Of a stretch of DNA of 64,000 bases, positions 2,536 to 39,000 are shown one piece after another. The notes beneath the pieces are model-generated. The model saw only the letters and a program-made list of their open reading frames with translations. It was not told where the DNA came from and did no database searches. Position numbers and translations under genes: made by a program. Within the stretch, counting starts at the first letter, position 1; every line of letters begins with the position of its first letter. The stretch is taken from the IMG/VR virus record IMGVR_UViG_3300044898_000031, positions 12,529 through 76,528 of that record. One strand, given 5' to 3'. This DNA is from a virus. Taxonomy: Duplodnaviria; Caudoviricetes.

Positions 2536-3023
2536 TTTCTTACCACATTATCAGGAAACTTAGTTATCCTATTGCCATTAAAAAACCAATGTGGATTTAT
2601 CCAGTAATAATCCATAACATGTATCTTTGCTATAATACCGGTTTGCATTAACTCTACTATAGCTGACTTATATGTGTTTATTGAGCCTACCTCATTTTCT
2701 TCCATATACCTAACCTTATTGATCCATATATAATCCTTGCCTGACTTTAACTCATACCCTATCCACAAAAATAAATCTTTCGACCTCGGCTTTAATTTTG
2801 CCATTATAGTACGCCTTTGTTTATCTGAAAATACCTTACAGTAAGGCGTGGCCTCATAATCAAAGTTTGCTAACTCATAGATAGAATCCTCTCCTGAGGA
2901 CTTATCATGTACCCTATATTTATTATCAGACCGTACCGAATTTACAGGTATTTTTAAACTCGATACAAATGGATTTATACCTAATTCAGCCTCATCTAAT
3001 TCTTGCTTTTCATACTTACTCAT
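2532..3023 (-). CDS. RepL-like (plasmid replication/maintenance-type) HTH protein
   Basis: C-terminal 'AIVELMQTGIIAK..YYWINPHWFFNGNRI' fits the RepL-family HTH pattern; first gene of the leftward operon. Confidence 0.6.
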   Translation of the reverse strand: MSKYEKQELDEAELGINPFVSSLKIPVNSVRSDNKYRVHDKSSGEDSIYELANFDYEATPYCKVFSDKQRRTIMAKLKPRSKDLFLWIGYELKSGKDYIWINKVRYMEENEVGSINTYKSAIVELMQTGIIAKIHVMDYYWINPHWFFNGNRITKFPDNVVRK

Positions 3024-3729
3024 ATAGAATACAAATATAAATAAATTGACATAACATCAAAATATTAATTACAAATAATTGCCTTTTTATCAAAAATAAA
3101 TACCATGTCAATTTTTTGGTTCCAAAATCAGTTTACTGACACCCTGTTTTTATGCCTTTTTAATACCTACAAGCCACTTTTTACTACCATAATTATCCAA
3201 TACTCGATTAGTCATATAATAAGTATTAAGTTAAATCGAGTACCTCTGCTAAAATAACATCAATTAACTTAACATTACACCTATTTAAAATAACTTATGT
3301 TGCTGTTAACAATAAGTAAGTAGCAATATAAATAATACCTCATATTGGTACCTATGGGGGGTTATCTCCTCAAACACTACCCCATGATCCGTGTTTTTAA
3401 AACGGGATTTTGGTAACCGGGTGGCATCGTTTTGTAAAAGGTACTACACTATCAGCTATAGGAGCGTAGCATACAGCATGGGATCAGTCAAACCTTTTTG
3501 CTATAGCTCATTGTAATGGTGTTATCACAAGTGACATTGTTTACTGTCATAGCATACATACATTTTAAAAACTAATAACATTATTTGTATTATTGTATTG
3601 TAAAAACAGTAGGGTAGGGGAGAGGTGTTTTAGTTAATTATATTTCTACTTAACATAATTAACATTATGAGTACATTTTACCTCTTTCTGTTTAACCCTT
3701 TTTTTAAGCATTTTAAGACACTTTAGTTT
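3024..3729. other. Divergent 706-bp non-coding region (candidate origin, packaging site or genome end)
   Basis: Longest ORF-free stretch; lies at the strand switch between RepL-like and winged-helix genes; G-tracts at about 3355 and 3611. Confidence 0.4.
3032..3060 (-). promoter_or_regulatory. Bacteroidota primary-sigma promoter for the leftward operon
   Basis: Minus strand TTGATG-N15-TATATTTG-N8-ATG. Confidence 0.65.
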
Positions 3730-4143
3730 ATGTTGGAACAATCTCCTTCCCTATTTTATAAAGACTTTCCCAAGGCTGTAAAAGCAAAATTAAGGGGGTT
3801 AAACCACGTCTTAACAGATGACGTTATATTATCACTTTGCCGATGGTATCAGTTCAACGACACATTAAAAAACAAATACAGGTTGCATCAGGTGAATGTA
3901 TCAACGTTAATGTTAATCATTTATAACTGGAATTATAAGCAGCAGGGGACGAGTGTGTATTGCATTCAAAAGAATGTAGATAAATGGCAAACGATTAAAA
4001 ATACGGTGTCTATAAGGGATAGGTTGTATATTCTAATGGAAAGGGGTTTAGTTGAACAATCGGTAAAAAACGGAGCACTGAAGGTTTACACTCCAACATT
4101 AAAAGCCTTGCAGGAAATTACTACACTATCTCAAACGGTGTAA
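3730..4143 (+). CDS. Winged-helix DNA-binding protein
   Basis: C-terminal 'IRDRLYILMERGLVEQSVKNGALKVYTPT' wHTH helix-wing pattern. Confidence 0.55.
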   Translation: MLEQSPSLFYKDFPKAVKAKLRGLNHVLTDDVILSLCRWYQFNDTLKNKYRLHQVNVSTLMLIIYNWNYKQQGTSVYCIQKNVDKWQTIKNTVSIRDRLYILMERGLVEQSVKNGALKVYTPTLKALQEITTLSQTV

Positions 4144-4470
4144 AATAAATCCATCATTATAACTATACTTAACCCCACTAAAACAGGTCAAAAACCCTCA
4201 TACGATAGCAACAGGAAATAAAGAGAGTGAACAGTATATAATTACGTATTGTACGTATGAGCGGTATTTGTGTTTGGTTTTGATCTTATTCTATTTGTAG
4301 CACTGTAGAAATTTGGTATATAAATTACGCAAAGTGTGTATATTATTCTACAATGTAATTCCCCATTGAATAATAAAAGTGCTTGTGTAGGTTGTATACC
4401 TATTTGGCACAGTATTTGTATATGTATTTACAACACTGCGGTGTTGCAGTGGGTAAAAAAGCTTAGCAGT

Positions 4471-4872
4471 ATGTTAAACATTAATCCCTTTGCTGAAATA
4501 TTCAGCACAACTAAAATTAAATCATTAGGCATATCGCTTGATACTTTTTACATGGGTGATAAATTAGCCTATAAAATGCATGTTAATGGTGTTTTGTTAT
4601 TTGAAGGCACTGATTTTAAACCCTCCCCTTTGTATAATTGGGATGATTTGGAGGCAAATATTGATTTATTGGGATTCCTATCATGTGGAATACATGATAC
4701 CGATAGTGAATACTTCGCTAGTTATAACCATGCTCAATTAGACTGGGCTAATGATGTAAGCGGCGGTATAACCATACGGGAACGATTGAGCGGCTTGGTA
4801 TCGGATGCCAGCGACAAAAGAAGCGAGTACTATAAAGACGCTATTAAGCAATTCAAACATAAAACGCATTAA
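4471..4872 (+). CDS. Early hypothetical protein (conserved-type 'FEGTDFKPSP...LLGFLS...DTDSEYF' motif)
   Basis: ATG at 4471 with A-rich leader preferred over the GTG at 4336 given in the ORF track. Confidence 0.65.
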   Translation: MLNINPFAEIFSTTKIKSLGISLDTFYMGDKLAYKMHVNGVLLFEGTDFKPSPLYNWDDLEANIDLLGFLSCGIHDTDSEYFASYNHAQLDWANDVSGGITIRERLSGLVSDASDKRSEYYKDAIKQFKHKTH

Positions 4873-4879
4873 CCGTTGT

Positions 4880-4943
4880 TCCGCTAAGCTCAGCGGATGA
4901 TCTGCCAGCCTGCTATCCTTATAGGAAGCGGGCAATTGGCAGT
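4880..4943 (+). ncRNA. Structured intergenic RNA element, copy 1 (small hairpin plus bulged long hairpin)
   Basis: CCGCT/AGCGG hairpin; CTGCCA/TGGCAG, GCCTGCT/AGCGGGC and TCCT/AGGA nested stems. Confidence 0.55.
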
Positions 4944-4975
4944 AGGGGATGTTCCCAAATTTAAAACTTAGCAAA

Positions 4976-5278
4976 ATGCCACTTACAACAGCTTTAAACT
5001 ACCAACGAATAATGGCTCTTAAGCCCACTGTTTATTGCACCATTACCAATTCATTGGGCCAATCATTTGATTTGATAGAGCATCCAACAAAAGGCGATGA
5101 ATATACAGTAATCATAATGTATCACGATGAAAAATTAGCTATTGATAGCGAGTTTTGGGACACTGAAGATATGGAACACACTGAGGATTATATGCCATAC
5201 TATATCTATGGTGAAATTCATTTAGGGTACGAATTAGATAATATAGATAAGACACCATTTGATAAATTACCTATATGA
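4976..5278 (+). CDS. Early acidic hypothetical protein
   Basis: ATG at 4976 after AAATTTAAAACTTAGCAAA leader. Confidence 0.65.
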   Translation: MPLTTALNYQRIMALKPTVYCTITNSLGQSFDLIEHPTKGDEYTVIIMYHDEKLAIDSEFWDTEDMEHTEDYMPYYIYGEIHLGYELDNIDKTPFDKLPI

Positions 5279-5296
5279 AATAACGAACTATAAAGT

Positions 5297-5357
5297 TCTG
5301 CTAAGTCTTTAGCAGTCTGCCAGCGCGACACTCTAAGGGGTTCGCGATTAAGGCGGT
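5297..5357 (+). ncRNA. Structured intergenic RNA element, copy 2
   Basis: CTGCTAA/TTAGCAG hairpin; CTGCC/GGCGG, CGCGA/TCGCG and ACTC/GGGT nested stems; same architecture as copy 1. Confidence 0.55.
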
Positions 5358-5371
5358 AAAAGATAAATAAA

Positions 5372-5539
5372 ATGATAGAAGAAGCTAAATATAAAATTGT
5401 GAGGCAAGCGGATGGTAAAGTTATCAAATCACACAATTTACAAGCACTTGCACGCTATTTTGATTGCGGTATAATGTATATTAAACTTCATTTAGATAAA
5501 CCGGTTCAATTAAACGGTTGGGAAGTAAAATCGATATAA
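5372..5539 (+). CDS. Small putative DNA-binding protein (NUMOD1-like)
   Basis: 55 aa, below the ORF-track cutoff: MIEEAKYKIVRQADGKVIKSHNLQALARYFDCGIMYIKLHLDKPVQLNGWEVKSI. Confidence 0.5.
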   Translation: MIEEAKYKIVRQADGKVIKSHNLQALARYFDCGIMYIKLHLDKPVQLNGWEVKSI

Positions 5540-5556
5540 CAGATAATTATAAGATT

Positions 5557-5748
5557 ATGAGAAAGAATATTGACATATCAGAATCAGCGGTAAAAGTATT
5601 AGATACTTTGGCAGTGGCTGATAACAGGCCAACAAAGAACTATATAGAAACTCAAATAGAGTTCTTATGTAAGAAAAATATAAATGCTATTGACCTCTGG
5701 AATCAGTGTGAAGCAGTTACTAAACAGTTACAACAATTAAGTAAATAA
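5557..5748 (+). CDS. Ribbon-helix-helix DNA-binding protein
   Basis: MRKNIDISESAVKVLDTLAVADNRPTKNYIETQIEF: strand-helix-helix pattern. Confidence 0.7.
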   Translation: MRKNIDISESAVKVLDTLAVADNRPTKNYIETQIEFLCKKNINAIDLWNQCEAVTKQLQQLSK

Positions 5749-5752
5749 GATT

Positions 5753-6058
5753 ATGAAAACGTTAGAGCCTTCATTAGCTGCACTGTCACTAATTAAACAA
5801 GCTGAAATAATAAATGCTAATCTTGACAGGCTGCACGATATTATCAATAAGGCGGAACGCGGAGCAATGGGGTTAACCTTAGATAGTTCTAAAACCCCTG
5901 AATGGAGTAAAGCTAAGCATGAATACGACATGATGTTTAGCCGGTTACGTGCAGTTAACAGCCAGTTGAATAAACTACGTAAATGCGTAGGTTATGAGGC
6001 TGTGAACGGCAAGAGGGTAGCAATCTATCAATACAAAGATAATCAATTAACCAAATAA
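5753..6058 (+). CDS. Hypothetical protein
   Basis: 101 aa; 'KTPEWSKAKHEYDMMFSRLRAVN' helix motif of a common phage family. Confidence 0.6.
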   Translation: MKTLEPSLAALSLIKQAEIINANLDRLHDIINKAERGAMGLTLDSSKTPEWSKAKHEYDMMFSRLRAVNSQLNKLRKCVGYEAVNGKRVAIYQYKDNQLTK

Positions 6059-6083
6059 GTATCACCAATAATCAAAAACTATC

Positions 6084-6428
6084 ATGTCTATTAAATTATT
6101 AACACCGAACCAACACGATGAATTATTAAACCTTTATCGATTATTCCCTGAACTCACTTTAGAGAATAAAGGGTACGAGGGTATAAACAGATGCGATTTT
6201 ACACAAGAAGCAAAAGACGCTGATAAAAAAGTCAACAGTATTTTAAAAAATAGTATCAGTGGCTTTAGTTCTTTTCAAAATTTCTGTCATAGCAAAGCGG
6301 GTGAAATATGTTTAAGGTTTCAATATAACTATAGTTACGATACAAATGATCTGCCATTTACAGGAGTAGGATATATTCTTTTGGATGAACTATTGAACGG
6401 CTTTAGTGACAAAACCCAAAAAAGCTAA
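6084..6428 (+). CDS. Hypothetical protein
   Basis: 114 aa ORF with A-rich leader. Confidence 0.6.
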   Translation: MSIKLLTPNQHDELLNLYRLFPELTLENKGYEGINRCDFTQEAKDADKKVNSILKNSISGFSSFQNFCHSKAGEICLRFQYNYSYDTNDLPFTGVGYILLDELLNGFSDKTQKS

Positions 6429-6550
6429 TCACAAAAATACTCCTGTTTCCTGATCGTTCAGGAGCACACCACCCGGCTGACTGTATTTATTTACGGGGTG
6501 CGCTTTTGAGGTGAGAAATGTTTAATAAATAACAAATTAAAAACGTAAAG

Positions 6551-6769
6551 ATGAATTTTAACACAGCACAAGAAGCGCAAACATTATTTGAATTGGCTTT
6601 TGGACGCTTACTAAGAATAGGGTCACGCCCGGCACAAGATGGAGATGTAGTAGAATATGAGCATTGTAAATGGGTTTGTTATAATGCTGCTGAATATTTA
6701 GGTATTCAAACAGAATATTCTAGGCCGCATGATTTTGTAAGAGATTATTATAAGATTCACCATGACTAA
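6551..6769 (+). CDS. Hypothetical protein
   Basis: 72 aa ORF with A-rich leader. Confidence 0.6.
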   Translation: MNFNTAQEAQTLFELAFGRLLRIGSRPAQDGDVVEYEHCKWVCYNAAEYLGIQTEYSRPHDFVRDYYKIHHD

Positions 6770-7009
6770 CGAAGAAAAGATGCAGATATTAAAAGATAAT
6801 AATATAGAGTATCAATTTAATCCCCAAGGTAATTTAATGGCGCTATGTAAAATTAGCGTTTTTACTGAAGAGGAATGGTTTTTAGCAGACGATGTAATTA
6901 AGCTACTCTGATTTTCTTTGATAACGTTTCAGCGCAACGCTCCAAAGGCTTGCGCTTTTGGAGGTGCAAGGCAATAGTGCCGAAGCATAACAAAACGATC
7001 ACAATTAAC

Positions 7010-7285
7010 ATGAATAAGCAAAACAGAAAAGATTTAACCGAAGCCGTTGAATTTTTAGAAAAAGCAAAGGAACTAATAGCCAGGGCAAAAGAACGTGTTG
7101 AGCAAACCGGAAACGAGGAACAAGAAAAATACGACAATGCAAGTGAAGGTCAGCAAAGCAGGGATAAGTTCCAGCAAATGGAAGAAAACGCTTCTTCTTT
7201 GGAAGATATTTCAGGGTATTTAGATGAAGCTGAAACATCTATTGATGACCAAATAAACGCAATTCAAGATATTATCAACCAATAA
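7010..7285 (+). CDS. Acidic coiled-coil phage protein
   Basis: MNKQNRK...EEQEKYDNASEG...MEE pattern; ATG at 7010 preferred. Confidence 0.65.
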   Translation: MNKQNRKDLTEAVEFLEKAKELIARAKERVEQTGNEEQEKYDNASEGQQSRDKFQQMEENASSLEDISGYLDEAETSIDDQINAIQDIINQ

Positions 7286-7297
7286 ACCCTTAAGATC

Positions 7298-7429
7298 ATG
7301 AACTTTATTCAATTTTCAATAGGCTTAGTACTCATAGTGGGTTTAGGCTTATTAGCTATCAATGTAAACTGGGCTAATCAATGTCAGGATTTATTTAACT
7401 TGTTTAAAGGTAAGGAGAAAGTAAAATGA
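7298..7429 (+). CDS. Single-pass membrane microprotein
   Basis: 43 aa MNFIQFSIGLVLIVGLGLLAINVNW...; ATGA coupled to next gene. Confidence 0.55.
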   Translation: MNFIQFSIGLVLIVGLGLLAINVNWANQCQDLFNLFKGKEKVK

Positions 7430-7758
7430 ACCTAAAAGACGAAACCCTTAAACATATTGGCAATAAGTCAATAAAATGTATTTATATATTTTATTGCTAT
7501 TTTAGGATCGACCACGATAGTGATGTTGAGCAATTTATATTGCCAGTTAATCACACAAATGAACAAGCAAATGATTTTATAGCGTCTTTGGATTTTAATT
7601 ATGATAATGGTTATGGTTCTCAGCGCTACGATGGCACTATATGGTATAAAGACGGATCCTGGTCAGAGCGAACCGAATATGATGGCTCCGAATGGTGGGC
7701 ATATAGAACATGCCCCGAAATACCTAAAGAATTAAAAGGAGAACACCATGCCATTTAA
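7426..7758 (+). CDS. Conserved-type phage hypothetical protein
   Basis: 'LDFNYDNGYGSQRYDGTIWYKDGSWSERTEYDGSEWW' motif. Confidence 0.65.
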   Translation: MNLKDETLKHIGNKSIKCIYIFYCYFRIDHDSDVEQFILPVNHTNEQANDFIASLDFNYDNGYGSQRYDGTIWYKDGSWSERTEYDGSEWWAYRTCPEIPKELKGEHHAI

Positions 7759-7933
7759 ACCGTACACCCCTGAACAGGTCTTTGATTTACTCGGCAGCGT
7801 AACATGTGAAACCGATGTAATAGAAATAGAGCATTATGTAAAATCACACTGGCAGTATTATACGCCTTTAGATGTGCGCCTTTTCTTACAGAGTATTAGA
7901 ATGATTAATCAATATTTAAATAAAAAGACATGA
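7748..7933 (+). CDS. Hypothetical protein
   Basis: 61 aa, overlapping neighbours. Confidence 0.5.
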   Translation: MPFKPYTPEQVFDLLGSVTCETDVIEIEHYVKSHWQYYTPLDVRLFLQSIRMINQYLNKKT

Positions 7934-8172
7934 AAACTATTAGCGATTTAGATAAGCAATCTTTAAGAAATTATGTTAAACTGATTAACGAAGATCAGGG
8001 AAAGGTTAAAATAAAAATATCATTCAATATATCAAGTGTTGATGACTGCGAATACTTAATGTTCAATGTAAACGGTAAGAACATAATTCGTTTTACATTA
8101 GATGAAGCAATAAGTTTCTTAGATGGCTTAATGACGGCTTTAGATGCTTGTTTTTTAGATCAAATTAGCTAA
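7930..8172 (+). CDS. Hypothetical protein
   Basis: 80 aa, ATGA coupled. Confidence 0.55.
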   Translation: MKTISDLDKQSLRNYVKLINEDQGKVKIKISFNISSVDDCEYLMFNVNGKNIIRFTLDEAISFLDGLMTALDACFLDQIS

Positions 8173-8233
8173 CCAAACCACTAATTTCAAAGAACTGATA
8201 CATAAATATAACTAATTAAAACCAAAAATTACC

Positions 8234-8431
8234 ATGAAAAAAGCAAATATATTGGGCATATTAGCCTCAACTGCAATGTTAGGAATGCCAACAAGGCTAC
8301 CGGAAAGTAGACGCAGAAATTACCCATTACAAGGCAATCAAGGGTGGGGACATTACCACGAGCCAAAGGTAAAAAAATGGAGAGCGAAGGAACGAAGAGC
8401 AAAACAAGCACGTAAAATTAACTGGAATTAA
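8234..8431 (+). CDS. Small basic protein
   Basis: 65 aa; Arg/Lys-rich C-terminus; AACCAAAAATTACC leader. Confidence 0.55.
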   Translation: MKKANILGILASTAMLGMPTRLPESRRRNYPLQGNQGWGHYHEPKVKKWRAKERRAKQARKINWN

Positions 8432-8456
8432 AAACAAACCAAAAATTACCACAAAC

Positions 8457-8838
8457 ATGAAAAAATTACTACTCCTGCCATCCCTGTTATTTGTTTTAAC
8501 AGCTTCGGCACAAACAGCACAATACAAACGTATTGAAACAACTCATTTTAAAGGGGATAAATTGTCTTCTAAAGTTATCAATTACAAATCTGGAAATATT
8601 TCGATGGGAGACAGTTTTATCAATATCGAAGGATTAAAGAGTTTTACAATTGTTTCTAAGGGTCAAACGGAGGCCGAGGATGAAGGATATTATTCACGGA
8701 CATTATTTGATCACTGAGACGACCAAAGGCTCGCTAAAGGCTTTAAAACCCGTTCTTTTTTGGTCGCCTAAAAATAAACTAGTAGATGTAGTGGTAAAGG
8801 ACGGCCACCGAAATATTGATTATTGTTTAACCAATTAA
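8457..8838 (+). pseudogene. Secreted beta-rich protein with a +1 frameshift
   Basis: Signal peptide MKKLLLLPSLLFVLTASA|Q; deleting one T at 8703/8704 joins ORFs 8457-8717 and 8650-8838 into one 126-aa ORF. Confidence 0.55.
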
Positions 8839-8847
8839 AAATAAACC

Positions 8848-9126
8848 ATGCATATATCTGACCCAACTATGCTAATTGTGGAGTTTATTAAAAAATTAAC
8901 AAATCTTACACCATACGAAAAAGATGATGGTGATAAATACACCTTGTTGTTAGGGTATTTCAATCCACTGGAAATAGGTTTTTACAGACATAAACACCCT
9001 AATATGAATGACGAAAATATGAAAATGTCTGCTCACCTCCGGTTATTGCATGAGGTGTCTGTATTTATTACCAATTGGGACGAGTGGTGCACATGGCTTG
9101 AAATGGAAGAATCTAACAATAATTAA
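8848..9126 (+). CDS. Hypothetical protein
   Basis: 92 aa ORF with A-rich leader. Confidence 0.55.
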   Translation: MHISDPTMLIVEFIKKLTNLTPYEKDDGDKYTLLLGYFNPLEIGFYRHKHPNMNDENMKMSAHLRLLHEVSVFITNWDEWCTWLEMEESNNN

Positions 9127-9135
9127 AGTAAAATT

Positions 9136-9234
9136 ATGAAAAACCCCTACGAAAATATGCCACCGGATCAGCACTATACACTGGTCATTATTATATTATT
9201 TATTATTTTAGGACTTTTAAGCAGTATGTTATGA
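9136..9234 (+). CDS. Single-pass membrane microprotein
   Basis: 32 aa ...YTLVIIILFIILGLLSSML; ATGA coupled to next gene. Confidence 0.5.
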   Translation: MKNPYENMPPDQHYTLVIIILFIILGLLSSML

Positions 9235-9644
9235 AAAACGAAATATATAAAGGCCAAATCTATGTAACTAAAAGCTCTTGTACATTCTGCCCAAGTATGA
9301 AACCATGGGAAATTATAGAACTATACGAAACAGAACCCAAAGAGTTTTATGATGCGGTCGAAATGGAGCGTAATGCAAAAGGAAACTTAAATACTATAAA
9401 GGGGCTTGGCCGGGACTTTTCTTGGTGGGATTTAATTGTAGCTTATAGGTATCTTAAATTTGTTCAAAGAGCCAATATTATTGGTCTTTATATTCCACTT
9501 AAAATTTCGAAATTAATGAATAAGGTAAATAATAGTAGACCTATTGATTATGAAAAATTATCAAGGGATAGAAATAATCCTACTCAACAAGTGTGCGATT
9601 TATTTAAACAAAATATAGAAATGCCATGCGACTGCATGAATTAA
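9231..9644 (+). CDS. C-terminal fragment of a PAPS-reductase-like protein
   Basis: 'KSSCTFCP...EFYDAVEMER' plus terminal 'CDC'; no N-terminal PP-loop. Confidence 0.45.
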   Translation: MKNEIYKGQIYVTKSSCTFCPSMKPWEIIELYETEPKEFYDAVEMERNAKGNLNTIKGLGRDFSWWDLIVAYRYLKFVQRANIIGLYIPLKISKLMNKVNNSRPIDYEKLSRDRNNPTQQVCDLFKQNIEMPCDCMN

Positions 9645-9826
9645 TAATTTAAACCATGAAAAAGAAATATATATTATCATACACTTTTCTAAATGTAGAC
9701 TGCATTTTAGAATTTACTAACCTGTTTGACTTTTCGGCTAAATTAGAATGGTGTCAGGAACAAGCCGAAATACTACAGCATACTATTGATTTTAGAACTG
9801 AGTAAAAATAAATTATTAAAAATTAT

Positions 9827-9856
9827 TTTGATATTAAAAAAATAACATTATATTTG
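9827..9856 (+). promoter_or_regulatory. Bacteroidota-type promoter (middle operon)
   Basis: TTTG (9827-9830)-N18-TATATTTG (9849-9856). Confidence 0.6.
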
Positions 9857-10007
9857 AGTTCTTAAATAAAGATTTAAATAGCAAAAACAAATCTACACAA
9901 TTAAAACAAGGGGAGGCAACATGAGAAAGTATTAAATTAAATCAAAATCAGATAAAAAACAAAGGCGATTCATTGAAGTCGCCTTTGGCGGTAGAAAACA
10001 TTTGATA

Positions 10008-10163
10008 ATGAGCAAAAGCGATATTAAATCATTCCCAGTTTATCTACCAATAGATAAATTTAATAAATTAGATGAACTGGCTAAAAAAAAGCGAATCCCA
10101 AGAACCCGATTAGTAGAGGCTGAAATAGATAAGCTTTTGGCACGAGAAGAGAAAAGTAAATAA
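10008..10163 (+). CDS. Ribbon-helix-helix DNA-binding protein
   Basis: 51 aa MSKSDIKSFPVYLPIDKFNKLDELAKKKRIPRTRLVEAEIDKLL. Confidence 0.7.
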   Translation: MSKSDIKSFPVYLPIDKFNKLDELAKKKRIPRTRLVEAEIDKLLAREEKSK

Positions 10164-10193
10164 CAAACAAATAAACCACAAAATTACCACACA

Positions 10194-10406
10194 ATGAAAA
10201 CTTTAACCAATCAGCCACTACTCAACGACCAATTGAGCAGGGTATTTAATCACGCCATTTTAGTTGGAGCAGGATTAAAAACAGAAGATGCTTTTAATAT
10301 AAGCTTTAACAGCCCCCTATCTCTTTGTTGTGGGATGCCATTAGATCGTGAGGGATCATACGAATTTTGTAGTTATTGCATGGAGTTTCATAATAGTGAA
10401 CTATAA
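10194..10406 (+). CDS. Small Zn-ribbon protein
   Basis: 'SLCCG...FCSYCMEFH' motif. Confidence 0.55.
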   Translation: MKTLTNQPLLNDQLSRVFNHAILVGAGLKTEDAFNISFNSPLSLCCGMPLDREGSYEFCSYCMEFHNSEL

Positions 10407-10615
10407 TGGAATACGGCGAAATAAATTGTCCTTTATGTGGATGGGAAGCGCCACCTTTTGAAGGAAAGTATTATACTGTAAATAAGAAAAAATATCCTGT
10501 ATTTTTAAATGAACATAAGTACTATAACGGTTCATTTGATATGCATGATTGGGACGAAAGGCATTGTTGCCCCAAATGTAAAAAAGAATTTGAATTTTCA
10601 AACGGATCGGTATAA
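10406..10615 (+). CDS. Small Zn-finger protein
   Basis: CPLCG...CCPKC. Confidence 0.6.
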   Translation: MEYGEINCPLCGWEAPPFEGKYYTVNKKKYPVFLNEHKYYNGSFDMHDWDERHCCPKCKKEFEFSNGSV

Positions 10616-10851
10616 TGATAACACAACAACAATACGATGAAGCTATCGACAAAAGGTTAACAGCCATCATAGATATTGAACAGCTAAAAGCAGAAATAGA
10701 AGTATTGGATGCAATAATAAACGAATTTGAGAAACAAGAAGAACCATTTTAACTAATGTACATGGGATGATTGTAGCTAAGAATTTAAAGCTAAAGTTGC
10801 AAAACAACATAATAATCCACAAGTAGAAGATAAAAAAAATAGGGAACTATT

Positions 10852-11034
10852 ATGAACCAGCTTGACAGGCACGTTTTTAACGCGTATCACCCAAAAAAGC
10901 AATGGCCTAACTGGAAGTATGTCATAGTAGAACAGTATGGCAAGGAAGTCTACAGGGCATCTTCCCCGGCTTTTTGCCATAAGTTTATAAAAGAAAATGC
11001 TCTTAAAAATGCAATAGTGAAATTCGTCAGATAA
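10852..11034 (+). CDS. Hypothetical protein
   Basis: 60 aa ORF. Confidence 0.5.
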   Translation: MNQLDRHVFNAYHPKKQWPNWKYVIVEQYGKEVYRASSPAFCHKFIKENALKNAIVKFVR

Positions 11035-11060
11035 AAAACCAAAATTAAAAAATCAAATAA

Positions 11061-11360
11061 ATGGAAACAGAAAAATTCAGCATTATCAGAACACATTCCG
11101 CAGGTGTATGGTTCGGCAACATTAAAAAATTAGATGGCAGTATAGCCATTGTTACCAATGCCAGAAGATTGTGGTATTGGTCAGGTGCAGCTTCTTTGAG
11201 CCAGTTAGCCGTTGAAGGCACAAAAAGGCCACGTGATTGCAAATTCACCGTAACTATAATAGACGAAGATGGCGTTTATCTGCCACAAGTTATCGAAGTA
11301 TTACCATGCACTAAAGAAGCTATTGAAAATATAAATTCAGTACCTGTATGGAAGATTTAA
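11061..11360 (+). CDS. DUF6948-like phage protein
   Basis: 'IIRTHSAGVWFG...NARRLWYWSGAASLSQLAVEG' signature. Confidence 0.7.
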   Translation: METEKFSIIRTHSAGVWFGNIKKLDGSIAIVTNARRLWYWSGAASLSQLAVEGTKRPRDCKFTVTIIDEDGVYLPQVIEVLPCTKEAIENINSVPVWKI

Positions 11361-12055
11361 TTAAAGCATTTATGGCAATAGAGCAGGTAAGCGATGGCTC
11401 TGGCGATGGCTATGGCTCTGGCGATGGCTCTGGCTCTGGCGATGGCTCTGGCGATGGCTCTGGCGATGGCTCTGGCGATGGCTCTGGCGATGGCTCTGGC
11501 GATGGCTCTGGCGATGGCTCTGGCGATGGCTCTGGCGAAATTAAACAAATCACTTATGCTGACTATAAAAAAGGCTTTTTAGATAAGCAGATACATTCAC
11601 TAAAGTCATTCAGCGGCAAACCTGTCTATTATATCGACAACATCCCTTGTACGTTTTTATCAATTGTGAATAACGTGGCTAAAGTATCTGTCATTAAAGA
11701 TGACTTCACTACCGAAAAGATGTACATCGCTAAGTCGGGTAATCTCTTTGCGCATGGCGATACAAAAGAACAGGCATTACAATCTGTAAATGATAAATAT
11801 TTTGCCTCACTATCTTTTGCTGAAAATAAAGCGGAATTTATTAAACTTTTCAAAAAAGAAGAAAAGTATAGCAATCAATTATTTTTTGAATGGCATTATC
11901 TTTTAACAGGAAGCTGTAAAAGTGGTCGGTTGATGTTTGTGAAAAGTCACGATATTGATCTGAATGGCAAGATGACCACTTTTGAGTTTTTAAATCTGAC
12001 CAAATCGGAATACAATGGTGAGATCATAAGGGAAATTATAAGTGGATTATCATGA
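11348..12055 (+). CDS. GSGDG-repeat phage protein with conserved C-terminal domain
   Basis: (GDGS)n tract, then 'FAHGDT...FEWHYLLTGSCKSGR' domain. Confidence 0.7.
   Translation: MEDLIKAFMAIEQVSDGSGDGYGSGDGSGSGDGSGDGSGDGSGDGSGDGSGDGSGDGSGDGSGEIKQITYADYKKGFLDKQIHSLKSFSGKPVYYIDNIPCTFLSIVNNVAKVSVIKDDFTTEKMYIAKSGNLFAHGDTKEQALQSVNDKYFASLSFAENKAEFIKLFKKEEKYSNQLFFEWHYLLTGSCKSGRLMFVKSHDIDLNGKMTTFEFLNLTKSEYNGEIIREIISGLS
11391..11537 (+). repeat. 12-bp tandem repeat GGCGATGGCTCT, about 12 units
   Basis: Directly visible; last ~8 units identical; variant 6-bp half-units near the start. Confidence 0.95.
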
Positions 12056-12360
12056 ACCTTGAAATAACTATAGTAAGCTTTAAACAGACATCCGAAAGCG
12101 AGGAGGAATTATATTTTTGCTCTGACAGGCGAATTGAATCAGGGGATTATTATCTAAATAACGCACTACAACCATTTATAAGAGTTCAGAGAGCATTTAA
12201 ACCGGTAAGTGGGGAAAGATGTAAAAAGTTAGAAGCCTCTACGTGTAGGGCTTATAATGTGCCCGAAATACCACTGTCATTTGTAAAGCAGTATTTTGCT
12301 TTGGAGAAAAAGGACAGGCCAGTGAAAACTTACTTTAGAATAGAAGAATTAACTAAATAA
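12052..12360 (+). CDS. Hypothetical protein
   Basis: 102 aa, ATGA coupled. Confidence 0.55.
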   Translation: MNLEITIVSFKQTSESEEELYFCSDRRIESGDYYLNNALQPFIRVQRAFKPVSGERCKKLEASTCRAYNVPEIPLSFVKQYFALEKKDRPVKTYFRIEELTK

Positions 12361-12372
12361 ATATAAACAAAA

Positions 12373-12927
12373 ATGAAAGATCAAGAAACGCTACGGAAAG
12401 AGCTATCTGCGCCGTTGCCTGCGGAGGCTGTAAAACCTCACCCCACTAAAACCTACCTATCGTCTATTAAGGCTATTTATGTTACCGAGCGGTTAAATAC
12501 TGTATTTGGTATCGGTAAATGGACACTAAAGGTAGACAAGATAGAGCGAGCCGAAGGGGGTACGGTGGTTGTAAAGGCTACTTTAGAAATCCCCGAATAC
12601 AGTATTTACCTTGAAAGCTACGGCGGGAACGATAATGGGGGGGAGAACAGCAAAAACTTCGACTTAGGGGATGCTTATAAGGGTGCCACGACCGATGCAA
12701 TCACAAAGATATGCTCATACCTTGAAATAGGAATAGATGTCTTTAAAGGGCTGAAAACACCACCTACGCCTAAAGCTGATAATCGGTTGCTATGGCTCAA
12801 GCCAAATACCGAGGCATGGACAAAAGCAATACCTTATCTTAAGGGTGGTGGAACAATTGCAGATATTAAAGAAAAATACAATTTAACCGAAGAAAACGAA
12901 AAAGAACTTTTAAAACAAGCGATATGA
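12373..12927 (+). CDS. Rad52/Rad22-like (Sak-type) single-strand annealing protein
   Basis: 'LSAPLP...YLSSIKAIYVTERLNTVFGIGKW...DAYKGATTDAITK' Rad52-family pattern. Confidence 0.8.
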   Translation: MKDQETLRKELSAPLPAEAVKPHPTKTYLSSIKAIYVTERLNTVFGIGKWTLKVDKIERAEGGTVVVKATLEIPEYSIYLESYGGNDNGGENSKNFDLGDAYKGATTDAITKICSYLEIGIDVFKGLKTPPTPKADNRLLWLKPNTEAWTKAIPYLKGGGTIADIKEKYNLTEENEKELLKQAI

Positions 12928-36068: not shown

Positions 36069-39000
36069 TTATTCAGCCTCTTTTGCCATTGTCTTTTGTA
36101 AATCCTGTTGGCCCTTTTGTATAAAATGTGCTTTTGCAGCATCATTGCCATGAGGAGTAAATAATCTCGGCAGTGCTATATCTCGTATATACCCGAAAAG
36201 CGATAATACACCTGCTTGGTCAGCATTAACATTATTATCAATTGAGTTTATGCCAAATAAGCTTTTTTCAAATCCTGTCTTTTGGTTAAGATAATTTATG
36301 CCTTTTTCAAGTGCTGGATTTAATGATTCGGTGGCTACCATAGCATTTGCAAGATACTGCTCTCCAAATCCTACAGCATTAACTTTCCTAAATAAACCAA
36401 TATCTGGTTGCCCTTTATCATTTCTGTTATTAGTAATATAAGGTGCTCTACCTGTTACAGCAGTTGTCACAAACTGAGTCCCTGGCGCTGAGGTTAAAGG
36501 ACTAACGAATGTATTTAAAGCCTGATTAGATGCTGCTTCGACGCTTTGACCTGCTGTACCGCCCAATTGATTTGTTTCCCATGCTTTAGGTGCGCCAATG
36601 GCACGTAATCCACGACCAAGTACAGGGAATTGAGAACCAAAAATATCTATATCATCCCATTCACCAGTTTTTTCATTATAAGCGAATTTCTTCGTGAAAT
36701 CATTTTTAAGGGACTCTGGCATAGGCACACGACCAAGTTTACTTGTTTCATCTTCCCATGGCCATTTTCCTGTAATCGCATGATAGGCTGTCATCCAGTA
36801 AGCAACTGCCCCTACAACCCCTCCTGTCACTAATTGAGCGGCTTTATATCCTATCAATTTAGCCGTTTGTTTAGCGCCCATTTTTGTTGTAAATGCCTGT
36901 TTTATAGTTGGTCTTTCTAATGCCAATGGGCTTGTTCCTGTTACTGCCTGTAATCCTGCTTTATAAATAGCAGAACCAAAGGTATAATATGGTGCCATTC
37001 CGCTCTCCTTTAGATTCCTGCCTAATGTGCTTTGCAGTGCTTTGGTATAAACACCCAATTCTTCCTGCATTTTTTGATGTAATTCAGGGGTTGCCTGTGG
37101 ATTCATAGCATCTGTAAGCCTGTACATAAGAACTCTTGCCTTCAAGTCAAAAGAATGATTGCCATAAAGTAATGGTGAAAAATCCCAAAAAGCAGGAATA
37201 TCTATTTTGCCAACTTTTAAACGTAATGCTTTTGCACCCATATCTTCGGCAAATTCCCTATTCCATGTTTTCTGCCATGTCTTTTCAGGTATAAACCCTT
37301 CATTAGCCATTTTTTGAATAGTTCTTAAAGCATCGTCACTTGAAATGTCAGTGGCTAATATTTTCCCTATTGTTAAAAAACTTTTTGTTACTGGGTTATT
37401 AGCTATAAGCCCTCCCGCTTTACCTATCAGCCCATTTTTATAAGCCCATTCAGTTACATATGGATTTGACCCCGTAATGACACCTGTGAGCCTGTATGCA
37501 TGTGCGGTAGCTTCTAACGGCCCACCCAATTGGAATTTTATGAGTGTATTGGCTACTTTTCCAAATAGGCTATACTTATCAAATTCATCCGTTGAGTTAA
37601 ATATAGGTTTCATCTCATCATGTAACCATTTAGGCATCAGTACGTATTTTGATGGTGTATGTGTGATTTTACCATCATTTATAATCATCCTACTGTCCTT
37701 TACCTTTTCCTTAACAGCATCAAATACCTCGTCACCTATCTGTATTTTATTGCCATCGTCAGGATGATTATGTGGTATATCAACTACTAATCCTGCTTCT
37801 TTTAAAGCATCAATTGCATTTGATTTATTGTTGGTTTTAATAGATGATACAAGCTTATTTGAAAAGTCAGCAATTGCGGTGCTATAATTATCGCCCTGTC
37901 CTGTAAACATTTTATTGTTTATATTTTGAGGGGCATTAAAAGTATTTCCTTTCGACGGTATTCTCGCTTTTTCATTGCCACCTAAACGAGTCATGGGGAA
38001 ATAAGTATCTAATGGGCCAAGAGCATCACTAAAAATACCCTCGTTACTTGCATGGCTGTCGGCTATTGGTTTTTCTATAAATTCCTTATATGCCTCCAAT
38101 GCCTGTTGCATTTTATGGTCGGTAAATTTGCCGTCTTTTACCTGATCATCGAAAGTCTTACCATTAGATAATGTTCCTAAAGTAATTACATTATCTGCCG
38201 CATGTTTAAATACGTCTGAAATATATTGCCGAGCTTCGTCATACCTCGCAGCCCCAATAAGGCTTGCGGCAAAGTCAGCTGGATTACCTTCTCCCTCTAA
38301 TGGCTGTAAGGTTTTTATCATGCTGTACATATTGCCATCTTTGCCATCCTTAAAAAGGTCATGCAAATCACTATCACTTTGCTTTTCTATTTGGTCAGCA
38401 TAGCCATTCCATCGTTCTTTTGCCCCTCGTAGCCTGCTTTCTACCAATGCTTCACGTAGATTTGTCCACCCATCGCTACCAACTAAGTTCTTTATTGCCT
38501 TAGTAGCTGTTTTAAGTATAACTGAGGCTTGCGATCGAGAGGTAGCATATTTTCTAACTGCATCATAAGCATCAAAGTTTTTTATGTCGTGTGTAAATGC
38601 CCTCAACTGTTCTAAGTTCCGTATAGTATAACTTTTTAGTGCCGCTGTTCGGGTATATACCCTTTTAGTTTCATCTTTCTGTTTTTCAGGTAATTCATCT
38701 ACTGGAACAGGTAACTTTGCTTGTGCAGGTATTTGCCTTTTAGGAAGTGTGGCAACTGGCTTTTTGCGCTCCGCCATAAACTGGTCAAGTTCCTTTGGTG
38801 TATTGTATGGCTTTCTCTCTTTTGGATCAAGGTTGGCAAGATGTGCCGCATACGCTGACTTTAAAGCATCAACATCCTCATCGGTGGTATCATGATACGT
38901 TTTTAACCAATCATTTACTATATCGGCAAATTTATGTATACCAATATCAGCATAAGCCTTTATCACTTTAGCCATGCTCTTTAATAATTCAGGGTTGACC

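Follow-up and report, generated by a model that had tools for sequence, protein, structure and literature searches.

The first two early genes of an uncultured Bacteroidota phage are each followed by a folded two-hairpin RNA element whose family is present in 14 phage genomes, this one and 13 very different others. The element is a new structured RNA family, absent from Rfam and supported by clear covariation. Its first hairpin is complementary to the start region of the gene upstream, and the two sites co-vary; this relation, which was absent from the initial annotation of the locus, is the most informative feature of the family. The element is most likely a built-in RNA control and a gene-swapping point for the first-expressed phage genes. 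Phages seldom conserve noncoding sequence this strongly, an indication that an important early step of infection is involved.

The window, the 64-kb stretch of DNA that we analysed, holds two copies on the + strand, A (4880-4942) and B (5298-5356). They are the only two full elements in the whole 76,528-bp genome as judged by the pattern GCTAAG-N5-25-CTGCCAG, which occurs twice in the window against 0.02 expected. Folding and sequence reading bore out the coordinates and the two-hairpin anatomy that the initial annotation had given both copies. In copy A, hairpin 1 (4880-4897; UCCGCU/AGCGGA, loop AAGCUC) was defined by folding and has a homolog in L165 (54 bits); the sequence GCUAAGCU (4883-4890), which we call the anti-start-site sequence, lies half in its stem and half in its loop. 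Hairpin 2 (4902-4942), supported by folding and family covariation, runs from an outer stem (CUGCCA/UGGCAG) through a 3' internal loop, a middle stem (GCCUGCU/AGCGGGC) and a bulged A to a tip stem (UCCU/AGGA). Copy B is preceded by a 5' flank, F (CUAUAAAG, 5288-5295). Its hairpin 1 (5298-5315; CUGCUAA-GUCU-UUAGCAG), again supported by folding and family covariation, has the anti-start-site sequence as its 5' arm and a copy of the leader motif as its 3' arm, and a single unpaired U (5316) separates it from hairpin 2 (5317-5356), which folds as CUGCC/GGCGG, CGCGA/UCGCG, a bulged C, ACUC/GGGU and the 3' internal loop AUUAA. The conserved 3' flank UAAAAGA follows, with an A-rich leader and the AUG (5372) of the next gene (5357-5374), a 55-aa ORF matching phrog_10808 'transcriptional regulator'; an AUG 15-25 nt 3' of hairpin 2 is also found in G002, G004, L163 and L207.

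The two copies had been described as sharing an architecture but little sequence. The architecture holds, whereas 'little' does not: column identity is 69%, with three exact blocks in common (GTTCYGCTAAG, TCTGCCAGC and GGCRGTA). Both copies lack a U-tract and precede an A-rich leader and ATG (4976 and 5372), as had been noted. A decayed third copy on the + strand (6904-6971; covariance-model match of 16.5 bits, E 0.013) keeps an F-like UACUCUGA with its stop codon, lacks hairpin 1, has a poor outer stem, and carries an inner hairpin resembling that of L158 and L165, followed by UUUU. No tRNA or tmRNA was found.

Neither copy matches a family in Rfam 15: there were no matches in the 64-kb window at the gathering score, and a permissive scan of positions 4700-5500 returned chance-level matches only (at most 21 bits, against gathering scores of 50-90). 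Homologs occur in 13 further phages, with strong covariation; a covariance model, R1, scores 54-90 bits in 12 elements, and variants of the element were found in L172, L205, L207, L209 and at a second site in L168. Genomes with flanks that cannot be aligned still share the element at 82-100% identity, blastn homology being confined to 30-90 nt around it, and when compared with the terminase of the window those of element-bearing genomes show 53%, 35%, about 24% and about 20% identity. Each genome carries one to three copies, always behind the first ORF unit, and the element has the orientation of the surrounding genes in all 14 genomes.

Several searches delimit this distribution. A first loose pattern, GCTAAG-N5-25-TCTGCCAG, gave more than 116 chance matches, and stricter patterns were used instead. 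A pattern scan of 185,579 prokaryote genomes gave nine matches, none confirmed by the model, and so found no copy of the element. Cultured Cellulophaga phages with a gene-2 homolog have no model match and no room for the element, and gene 1 has no relatives in IMG/VR or among cultured phages. Searching for relatives through the terminase yielded only three loci, as the element-bearing phages are too divergent for this route to be productive. Further type-A trailers were sought by the hairpin-3 motif (see below), and none of the 97 loci retrieved was real.

Minimum free energies are -34.4 kcal/mol for copy A (z-score -3.3, relative to dinucleotide shuffles) and -25.2 kcal/mol for copy B (-3.0). 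Folds of the opposite strands are weaker (-30.9 and -18.2 kcal/mol), and the + strand fold is the more stable wherever both strands passed the fold filter. Across the family 94.6% of cells are paired, against 22-47% in slid controls, with G-U cells outnumbering A-C cells by 15 to 7; double changes occur in 13 of 21 pairs, and none of 500 shuffles attains these values. The outer stem of hairpin 2 in L207 is CCGGCA/UGCCGG in place of CUGCCA/UGGCAG, and hairpin 1 stems take the forms CUGCUAA/UUAGCAG, UCCGCU/AGCGGA, CCCGU/ACGGG and CGGU/ACCG. These data support, for a sense-strand RNA in 14 genomes, the earlier proposal of selection on a cis-acting structure with compensatory changes. The spacer between the hairpins is one unpaired nucleotide in all type-B homologs and 4-5 nt in type A.

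A second form of co-variation links F to hairpin 1. F reads UAA(A)G and the hairpin 1 3' arm CUU(U)AG, and the numbers of A and U agree in 11 of 12 elements. The indel differs despite a near-identical hairpin 2 between window copy B and G001, and between L158 and L163. A coding cause was rejected: none of the ORFs extends past the UAA on the 5' side of the variable A.

The element forms the trailer of a cassette and lies behind its unit of variable ORFs. From 5' to 3', a full cassette comprises a promoter-like block, a 5' hairpin, AAAA-CUUAGCA-N2-3-AUG, variable orphan ORFs (usually a single one, at most three) and the element. At the head of cassette 1 in the window (+ strand, as are all features below) stands the block TTTGGCA-N4-ATTTGTATATGT (4403-4425), which occurs 45-60 nt upstream of the slot-gene AUG in L163, G004 and L207; in other genomes TTGACA-N17-TATACTTGTATTGT takes its position. 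From its sequence, this conserved block appears promoter-like, and it is restricted to the cassette head. No promoter motif was found inside the element, nor was the host sigma-A form TTTG...TAnnTTTG. The 5' leader hairpin of cassette 1 (CACUGC-GGUGUU-GCAGUG, 4434-4451, by direct sequence reading) has counterparts in all cassette leaders, where a small hairpin of differing sequence precedes the leader motif. Leader motif 1 (AGCUUAGCAG, 4460-4469) ends 1 nt upstream of the gene 1 AUG (4471). Between copy A and gene 2, hairpin 3 (GGG..CCC), an A-rich tract and leader motif 2 (CUUAGCA, 4967-4973) occupy 4945-4973 in the layout of a promoter-proximal leader, with the gene 2 AUG at 4976. In all 14 CUUAGCA-class units the first ORF is preceded by AAAA-CUUAGCA-N2-3-AUG; the second unit of L168 and L172 have other sequences at this position. 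Of the start sites in the window, those of the two cassettes alone have the CUUAGCA motif, and no second start-site motif (UAAGAUU) with a matching anti-motif was found. A hairpin promoter for a virion RNA polymerase of the N4 or crAss type was also considered, and was dropped because nothing in PDB or PHROG matches the 2088-aa ORF and D-x-D-G-D is absent from every long ORF.

The ORFs in these slots belong to at least 12 unrelated orphan families; they encode diverse proteins of 65-165 aa that are not hydrophobic peptides, and Pfam, PHROGs and the ESM Atlas were all uninformative about their function. Slot ORF 1 (4471-4872, 133 aa) is an orphan with no Pfam or PHROG family, no phage tblastn match and uninformative Atlas matches. 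Slot ORF 2 (4976-5278, 100 aa) matches phrog_11770, of unknown function, and its homologs in L158 and L168 also have a type-B element 3' of them. A stop codon lies 1-20 nt upstream of hairpin 1 and is often the UAA within F; unrelated slot ORFs end in a common KETV-stop, whose codons belong to the conserved element.

In all 16 cassettes hairpin 1 has, in its 5' arm or its loop, 8-10 nt of complementarity to the start region of the unit's first ORF. Leader motif 1 is the complement of GCUAAGCU of copy A over 8 nt, a match equalled in 1 of 184 control windows, and leader motif 2 that of UGCUAAGU of copy B, again over 8 nt. The complementarity is kept in four sequence classes, UGCUAAGU with ACUUAGCA, GCUAAGCU with AGCUUAGC (window copy A and L165), GUGAGAUUG with CAAUCUCAC (the second L168 element; 1 of 102 control windows) and CCGUCAAGCU with AGCUUGACGG (L172; 1 of 212 control windows), and the leader and hairpin 1 sites have therefore changed together. 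The motif is fixed at -11 to -3 from the AUG in 15 of the 16 cassettes. The long-range helices are short (8-10 bp), and for single cassettes 0-5% of control windows match. Independent support for the co-variation amounts to the four sequence classes and two or three indel events, since most type-B copies are near-identical and do not count independently.

When whole cassettes were folded, the leader was predicted to pair with the F/hairpin-1 region in 10 of 13; in nine of these the pair probability is 0.5-0.96. Leader and element co-fold better than they fold separately by 1.7-13.8 kcal/mol, and hairpin 2 is retained. The two cassettes of the window itself gain little by co-folding (-1.7 and -3.4 kcal/mol), and in folds of their whole mRNA the fold-back helix has a probability of nearly or exactly zero; type B, moreover, keeps its anti-start-site sequence in a good local hairpin. 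In G001, G002 and L209 the leader is predicted to pair with F and not with the 5' arm, so that the exact pairing scheme is provisional. The near-invariance of type B across distant phages exceeds what RNA-RNA pairing needs, and hints at a conserved protein partner or recent transfer. Inverted repeats bound by one DNA-binding protein would co-vary too.

We favour, tentatively and a little short of calling it probable, a reading of the element as an anti-start-site fold-back RNA by which immediate-early translation is limited or timed; hairpin 2 would mark the 3' end or insulate, and the conserved flanks would permit ORF swapping. The family, its structure and covariation, the complementarity and the cassette architecture are results of the analysis; that the element acts as RNA, that its effect is repressive and that it sets the timing of expression we infer. 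On the + strand mRNA, copies A and B would each close, as a 3' trailer, one of two immediate-early cassettes arranged in tandem, and the anti-start-site sequence of hairpin 1 (UGCUAAG) would have two alternative partners. In the first state it would pair with its own 3' arm, the leader-motif copy, leaving the start site free. In the second it would pair with the real leader motif, which lies at -11 to -3 relative to the first ORF's AUG, and in type B F would capture the displaced 3' arm; the mRNA would then be folded back and its start site blocked. The local hairpin should form first, during RNA synthesis, and the more stable long-range state later, such that each transcript might have a short period of translation before shutting itself off. 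The fold-back could be reopened by ribosomes that terminate in or beside F, where the stop codon lies. Hairpin 2, stable and U-less, may end, protect or insulate the upstream cistron and at the same time provide the A-rich leader of the next gene with its 5' hairpin. Since leader and trailer are conserved and the ORF is not, the pair could also be used as homology for exchanging first-expressed genes between phages.

A broader version of the fold-back reading is possible, though we regard it as doubtful. Leader and trailer would constitute a portable self-timing cassette built on a four-segment bistable switch (leader motif, F, anti-motif and decoy arm) that gives a burst of translation and then closes. 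Such a cassette would have spread by recombination among distant soil Bacteroidota phages, would mark a hypervariable immediate-early slot for host takeover or anti-defence, and would use a pairing code in at least four specificities.

Hairpin 2 itself raises the question of whether the element is only a site of RNA processing or stability. Its irregular helix comprises three segments, 14-19 bp in all, a conserved, asymmetric internal loop of 3-5 nt on the 3' side and a variable tip; the hairpin lies between early cistrons and lacks a U-tract, and in type A it is followed by hairpin 3 and a leader resembling the 5' end of a primary transcript. Its shape agrees with the RNase III site proposed in the initial annotation: RNase III or another endonuclease might cut in or beside it, leaving the upstream cistron a protective 3' hairpin and giving the downstream cistron a defined 5' end, with the leader complementarity secondary. 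We consider this unlikely as a full account. It leaves unexplained both the four-class co-variation of hairpin 1 with the start region and the indel co-variation of F with the 3' arm; moreover, a genome has no more than one to three such sites, each of them behind the first ORF unit, and the lower stem of hairpin 2 measures only 5-6 bp.

The position of hairpin 2 also bears on transcription. In L205 and L209 a U-tract hairpin stands at exactly this position, in clear terminator form in L209 and in weaker form in L205, which suggests that the position belongs to a hairpin that forms a 3' end or insulates. In G001 and G005, hairpin 2 is followed by a further, small hairpin whose tail is U-rich. 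Together with the placement of the element, always after the first one to three ORFs behind the promoter-like block, these features would suit a factor-dependent or leaky stop or pause that closes the immediate-early unit and makes the delayed-early genes depend on read-through. This alternative is distinctly unlikely: all 12 full elements lack a U-tract (the 3' flank is UAGGGGA in A and UAAAAGA in B, in the window as in the other full elements), the need for leader complementarity is left unexplained, and type A leaves too little space for a new promoter ahead of gene 2, so that a complete stop would shut this gene off.

Unrelated ORFs between conserved flanks in distant phages, and the KETV-stop codons that they have in common, bring DNA-level recombination into consideration. 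The short inverted repeats, formed by the leader motif and the hairpin 1 arm, and the hairpins would then be sites of cassette excision, inversion or exchange in the style of integron attC sites or invertible segments, and the layout of hairpin 2 (conserved base, unpaired spacer, bulged base, variable tip) is attC-like. We find this improbable. The motif-to-AUG distance is fixed (-11 to -3 in 15 of 16 cassettes), the fold is biased to the sense strand, the orientation is the same in 14 of 14 genomes with no inverted or empty forms seen, the attC core sites RYYYAAC/GTTRRRY are absent on sequence reading, and the repeats span no more than 8-10 bp. The swapping is explained by ordinary homologous recombination where regulatory DNA is conserved, as in T4-type PeSL cassettes (PMC4122927). 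The cassette exchange proposed in the initial annotation shows up in the evolutionary outcome, as unrelated ORFs between conserved flanks, with no sign of a dedicated recombinase site.

A put-like antiterminator, also proposed initially, would be a cis-acting RNA that binds host RNA polymerase and confers resistance to termination. The two hairpins of type B with one unpaired nucleotide between them, the location a few hundred nt 3' of the promoter-like block, and a near-invariant sequence across distant phages, as for the ligand of a conserved host enzyme, would fit. The proposal fared poorly, and we hold it to be very improbable: a search of the HK022 genome with R1 (E <= 10) gave no match, the type A spacer is 4-5 nt, a simple scan of the + strand from 3000 to 12500 found no terminator-like U-tract site to override, the put-like model does not lead one to expect leader complementarity, and L205 and L209 replace hairpin 2 with a U-tract-tailed hairpin. 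Least probable of all, and barely credible, is a decoy for a host protein, either an RNA anti-CRISPR mimicking a CRISPR repeat or a small RNA released from the 3' UTR to act in trans at several early start sites: early location and very high sequence conservation fit, L168 has UCUCAC at four consecutive start regions matching a single GUGAGAU loop, and GUUC, CUGCC/GGCAG and CUAAG of the element may recall the type I-F repeat, but type I-F systems are to our knowledge not typical of Bacteroidota, the inner part of hairpin 2 is long, variable and unlike a repeat, the window has the motif at two cassette start sites only, and the pattern scan of prokaryote genomes found no copy.

If the fold-back reading is true, the element is an RNA-only control device for immediate-early genes. 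The Bacteroidota hosts initiate translation without Shine-Dalgarno pairing, and post-transcriptional control in them is poorly known. The leader and trailer signature also marks the slot of the first-expressed gene. This slot usually houses anti-restriction or other anti-defence genes, such as T7 gene 0.3, and the signature thus flags a dozen orphan families as candidates.

Among known systems, the closest in principle to the proposed fold-back are the hok-family type I toxin-antitoxin mRNAs, of about 300-500 nt. Their 3' end is complementary to their own 5' leader and start region (fold-back inhibition, fbi/tac), and local hairpins compete with the long-range helix, so that translation needs refolding. 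For the regulation of hok mRNA, see PMC9841398. The element resembles them in the complementarity of its 3' end to the leader and start region and in the competition between local and long-range pairing. It differs in that no toxin ORF or Sok-like antisense gene was identified, the ORFs being diverse and 65-165 aa long, and in its place inside a polycistronic phage early operon, with a second large hairpin. We know of no sequence similarity between hok fbi/tac and the element. Pairing of a distant RNA segment with a start region also controls the use of that region in the read-through transcripts of T4 genes e, soc and 49 and in MS2; the likeness lies in long-range pairing of the same RNA with its translation start region, whereas the partner segment here is 3' of the gene's own stop codon and has a built-in competitor arm.

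The RNase III sites between T7 early genes (R0.3-R1.3) are irregular hairpins with internal loops, lying between cistrons. Hairpin 2 is likewise irregular, intercistronic, furnished with an internal loop and devoid of a U-tract, but it is shorter than the classical sites, with a shorter lower stem, and it is accompanied by a conserved hairpin 1 at one to three sites, all behind the first ORF unit. HK022 putL and putR consist of two adjacent hairpins of about 70 nt with a one-nucleotide gap, are carried on early transcripts and act on the RNA polymerase beta' subunit. Type B, with its two adjacent hairpins of about that length and its one-nucleotide gap, and the two copies on early transcripts of the window genome recall them; unlike put, copies A and B lie on one strand, 400 nt apart and around one gene, R1 has no match in HK022, no downstream terminators were found, and a link to a start region is not a put feature. 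On sequence reading, integron attC sites differ as well: GTTCTGC does not fit GTTRRRY and has no RYYYAAC partner.

For the cassette as a whole, a close parallel is the T4-type PeSL (promoter-early stem-loop) cassette, in which variable orphan early ORFs lie between small conserved regulatory sequences with stem-loops; each PeSL combines a stem-loop of terminator type with a sigma-70 early promoter 3' of it, and a genome contains many of them (PMC2839356, PMC4122927). Our element differs in having one to three copies per genome, no U-tract and no internal promoter, and its leader-trailer complementarity is without a PeSL counterpart. In both systems the element is far better conserved than the ORFs and forms an exchange point between otherwise unrelated sequences, and the cassettes described here provide a second example, after the T4-type PeSLs, of modular shuffling at conserved regulatory sequences.

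Reading and folding of the DNA bore out the two-hairpin shape described in the initial annotation for copies A (4880-4942) and B (5298-5356) on the + strand. Folding energies are -34.4 kcal/mol for copy A (z -3.3) and -25.2 kcal/mol for copy B (z -3.0), and the opposite strands of both give less stable folds. The combined pattern occurs twice in the window against 0.02 expected, with zero further copies in the whole genome. The two copies had been thought to share little sequence; that view is corrected by the exact blocks GTTCYGCTAAG, TCTGCCAGC and GGCRGTA, which are present in both. Besides A and B, a decayed third copy was found at 6904-6971. Overlapping, mutually exclusive hairpins, GCGCAA...UUGCGC (followed by UUUU) and CUCCAAA...UUUGGAG, lie in this copy at 6920-6960 and may form a weak terminator or a switch. 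Rfam searches gave no match, permissive thresholds included, and a tRNA search found none.

Scanning by pattern and then with a covariance model (R1) identified further homologs in 13 more phage genomes or contigs, recovered from metagenomes of soil, rhizosphere and other origins; divergent members are under-sampled, because the collections were scanned by exact pattern. Each complete relative carries one copy, and the window genome carries two plus the decayed third. The element has two main forms. Type B, the form of copy B, has a near-invariant 5' 40 nt and a variable inner hairpin 2. Type A, comprising copy A and locus L165, differs from type B in hairpin 1, and downstream of its hairpin 2 come a small third hairpin and a conserved leader. 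L172 and the second copy of L168 represent divergent forms. The hairpin-2 outer stem of L207 is rewritten with compensatory changes, and L205 and L209 retain hairpin 1 and place a U-tract-tailed hairpin in the hairpin-2 position, a clear terminator form in L209 and a weaker one in L205.

Compensatory change, first proposed from the window copies, extends to the family: 94.6% of cells pair, and 13 of 21 pairs have changed on both sides, counts that lean towards structure, the alignment having been fitted to the model. None of the shuffles reached the observed pairing or double changes, and pairing in slid controls was 22-47%. Members are few, and type B includes many near-identical copies. Of the two strands, the + strand gave the more stable fold in all cases in which both passed the fold filter, and G-U cells outnumber A-C cells (15 vs 7). 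The orientation of the element is always that of the surrounding genes, which points to an mRNA structure. We class the element as a new RNA family whose leader-trailer design is unusual.

The virus record comprises 76,528 bp, of which the window covers bases 12529-76528. Small early genes are arrayed on the + strand from ~3100 to 24000, with the element copies 1.2-2.2 kb inside the array; the minus strand of the window encodes portal, large terminase and virion protein. The phage has a putative Bacteroidota host, an assignment that is in part indirect. Homologs of one early gene come solely from Cellulophaga phages, and a good match to a Bacteroidota-type promoter, TTTG-N18-TATATTTG, at 3032-3061 heads the leftward genes. 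A 59-nt noncoding block containing GTAGGGTAGGGGAGRGG is shared at 81% identity by the window phage (3602-3659) and G004, an element-bearing phage (L148 5137-5195). It precedes the ORF at 3730 by ~70 nt, is part of a 630-bp noncoding stretch (3100-3730) at a divergent junction, and could be an origin or regulatory site. In the structural module, a minus-strand ORF of 2088 aa (36069-42335) matched no PHROG family or PDB sequence and does not contain D-x-D-G-D, a motif of crAss-type virion RNA polymerases.

The element lies directly 3' of an ORF unit in all genomes; the unit is a single ORF except in G005 and in L168 (second unit), where it holds two or three. The start region of the first ORF reads AAAA-CUUAGCA-N2-3-AUG in the 14 CUUAGCA-class units, with a small hairpin 5' of the leader motif and a conserved promoter-like block further upstream. 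Two such cassettes follow one another in the window: a leader (4434-4470), gene 1 (4471-4872) and element A, then hairpin 3 with a leader (4945-4975), gene 2 (4976-5278) and element B. The promoter-like block at 4403-4425, with equivalents in L163, L148 and L207, reads TGGCAY-N5-TTGTA and resembles a sigma-54 -24/-12 promoter, but with GT in place of GC; G001, G003 and G005 instead have TTGACA-N17-TATACTTG, which fits sigma-70 and partly the Bacteroidota -7 motif. Another start-region word, UAAGAUU, stands just before the AUG of three more early genes (5550, 5746 and 6751), with no complementary partner nearby.

The ORFs occupying the slot between leader and element represent at least 12 unrelated families, none with known function. 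Several unrelated ones end in KETV-stop, and these last codons are part of the conserved element, a pattern that shows recombination at the element's edge. The G004 slot ORF (L148 5957-6382) is a fusion: over its N-terminal 90 aa it shares 70% identity with the L207 slot ORF, and its C-terminal part resembles the small phrog_10808 'transcriptional regulator' downstream of element B in the window (5372-5539). This amounts in effect to a deletion of the element that separates the two genes.

Compared with the window's terminase, those of element-bearing phages show identities of 53%, 35%, about 24% and about 20%, and blastn homology between early regions is mostly limited to 30-90 nt at the element (82-100% identity). 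The element is absent from cultured Cellulophaga phages with a gene-2 homolog, and a pattern scan of one genome per species across 185,579 prokaryote species gave no model-confirmed copy. Two very different phages share an intergenic 56-nt stretch at 85% identity (L145 6706-6761; L149 6520-6575, reverse complement). Its T-arm (CAGGTTCGATTCCTG) is tRNA-like and its flanks are acceptor-like, but ARAGORN called no tRNA in it.

The hairpin-1 5' arm and the leader motif are reverse complements of each other, and this relation is kept in four sequence classes: UGCUAAGU with ACUUAGCA in type B, GCUAAGCU with AGCUUAGC in type A, GUGAGAUUG with CAAUCUCAC in the second L168 element (site at the first ORF of the unit, 829 nt upstream), and CCGUCAAGCU with AGCUUGACGG in L172 (site 16-25 nt inside the upstream ORF). 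A G precedes CUUAGC only in the two leaders ahead of type A. In L168, UCUCAC also occurs at the starts of the two intervening ORFs and of the ORF after the second element. Part of the anti-start-site sequence is in the hairpin-1 loop in type A, the second L168 element and L172, a placement that recalls antisense RNAs; the type-B sequence is paired along its whole length, its partner being a copy of the leader motif. In type B, single-base indels in flank F on the 5' side (UAA[A]G) and in the 3' arm (CUU[U]AG) go together in 11 of 12 elements, among them pairs with nearly identical hairpin 2. Coding was rejected as the origin of this co-variation, since the ORFs end at or before the UAA in F. 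Taken together, the leader/5'-arm and F/3'-arm relations make two exclusive pairings possible among leader motif, F, anti-start-site sequence and 3' (decoy) arm. In 10 of 13 cassettes, whole-cassette folding predicted that the leader pairs with the F/hairpin-1 region (probability 0.5-0.96 in 9); this was not so for the window's own two. Co-folds of leader and element gained 1.7-13.8 kcal/mol with hairpin 2 retained; in G001, G002 and L209 the leader was predicted to pair with F, not the 5' arm.

The most economical reading is that the element is an RNA device that couples the translation start of the first early cistron to that cistron's end. We infer that the local hairpin would form first, leaving the start free; that a more stable long-range state would block it; and that terminating ribosomes beside F would hinder closure, giving a brief, self-limiting burst of expression. 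Hairpin 2, which is replaceable by a U-tract hairpin and has the next gene's A-rich leader close behind, would act as a 3'-end or insulating hairpin. Plain processing by RNase III or another enzyme is possible, as are a stop or pause signal without a U-tract, recombination sites at the DNA level, and a trans-acting decoy or small RNA; several of these rivals may operate alongside fold-back. The initial annotation's put-like antiterminator is a further, unlikely rival: model R1 did not support homology to HK022 put, and a scan of the + strand in 3000-12500 showed no terminators downstream.

Compared with known systems, the element falls in no Rfam family, has no similarity to put, and is a member of none of the hok, T4/MS2 sequestration or PeSL systems. 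It differs from hok-type systems in having no toxin or antisense gene, and from PeSL cassettes in having no promoter-terminator composite. Its closest working likeness would be the fold-back inhibition of hok-type mRNAs, together with start-site sequestration in T4 and MS2 transcripts, and in evolutionary behaviour it resembles the PeSL cassettes of T4-type phages (PMC2839356, PMC4122927).
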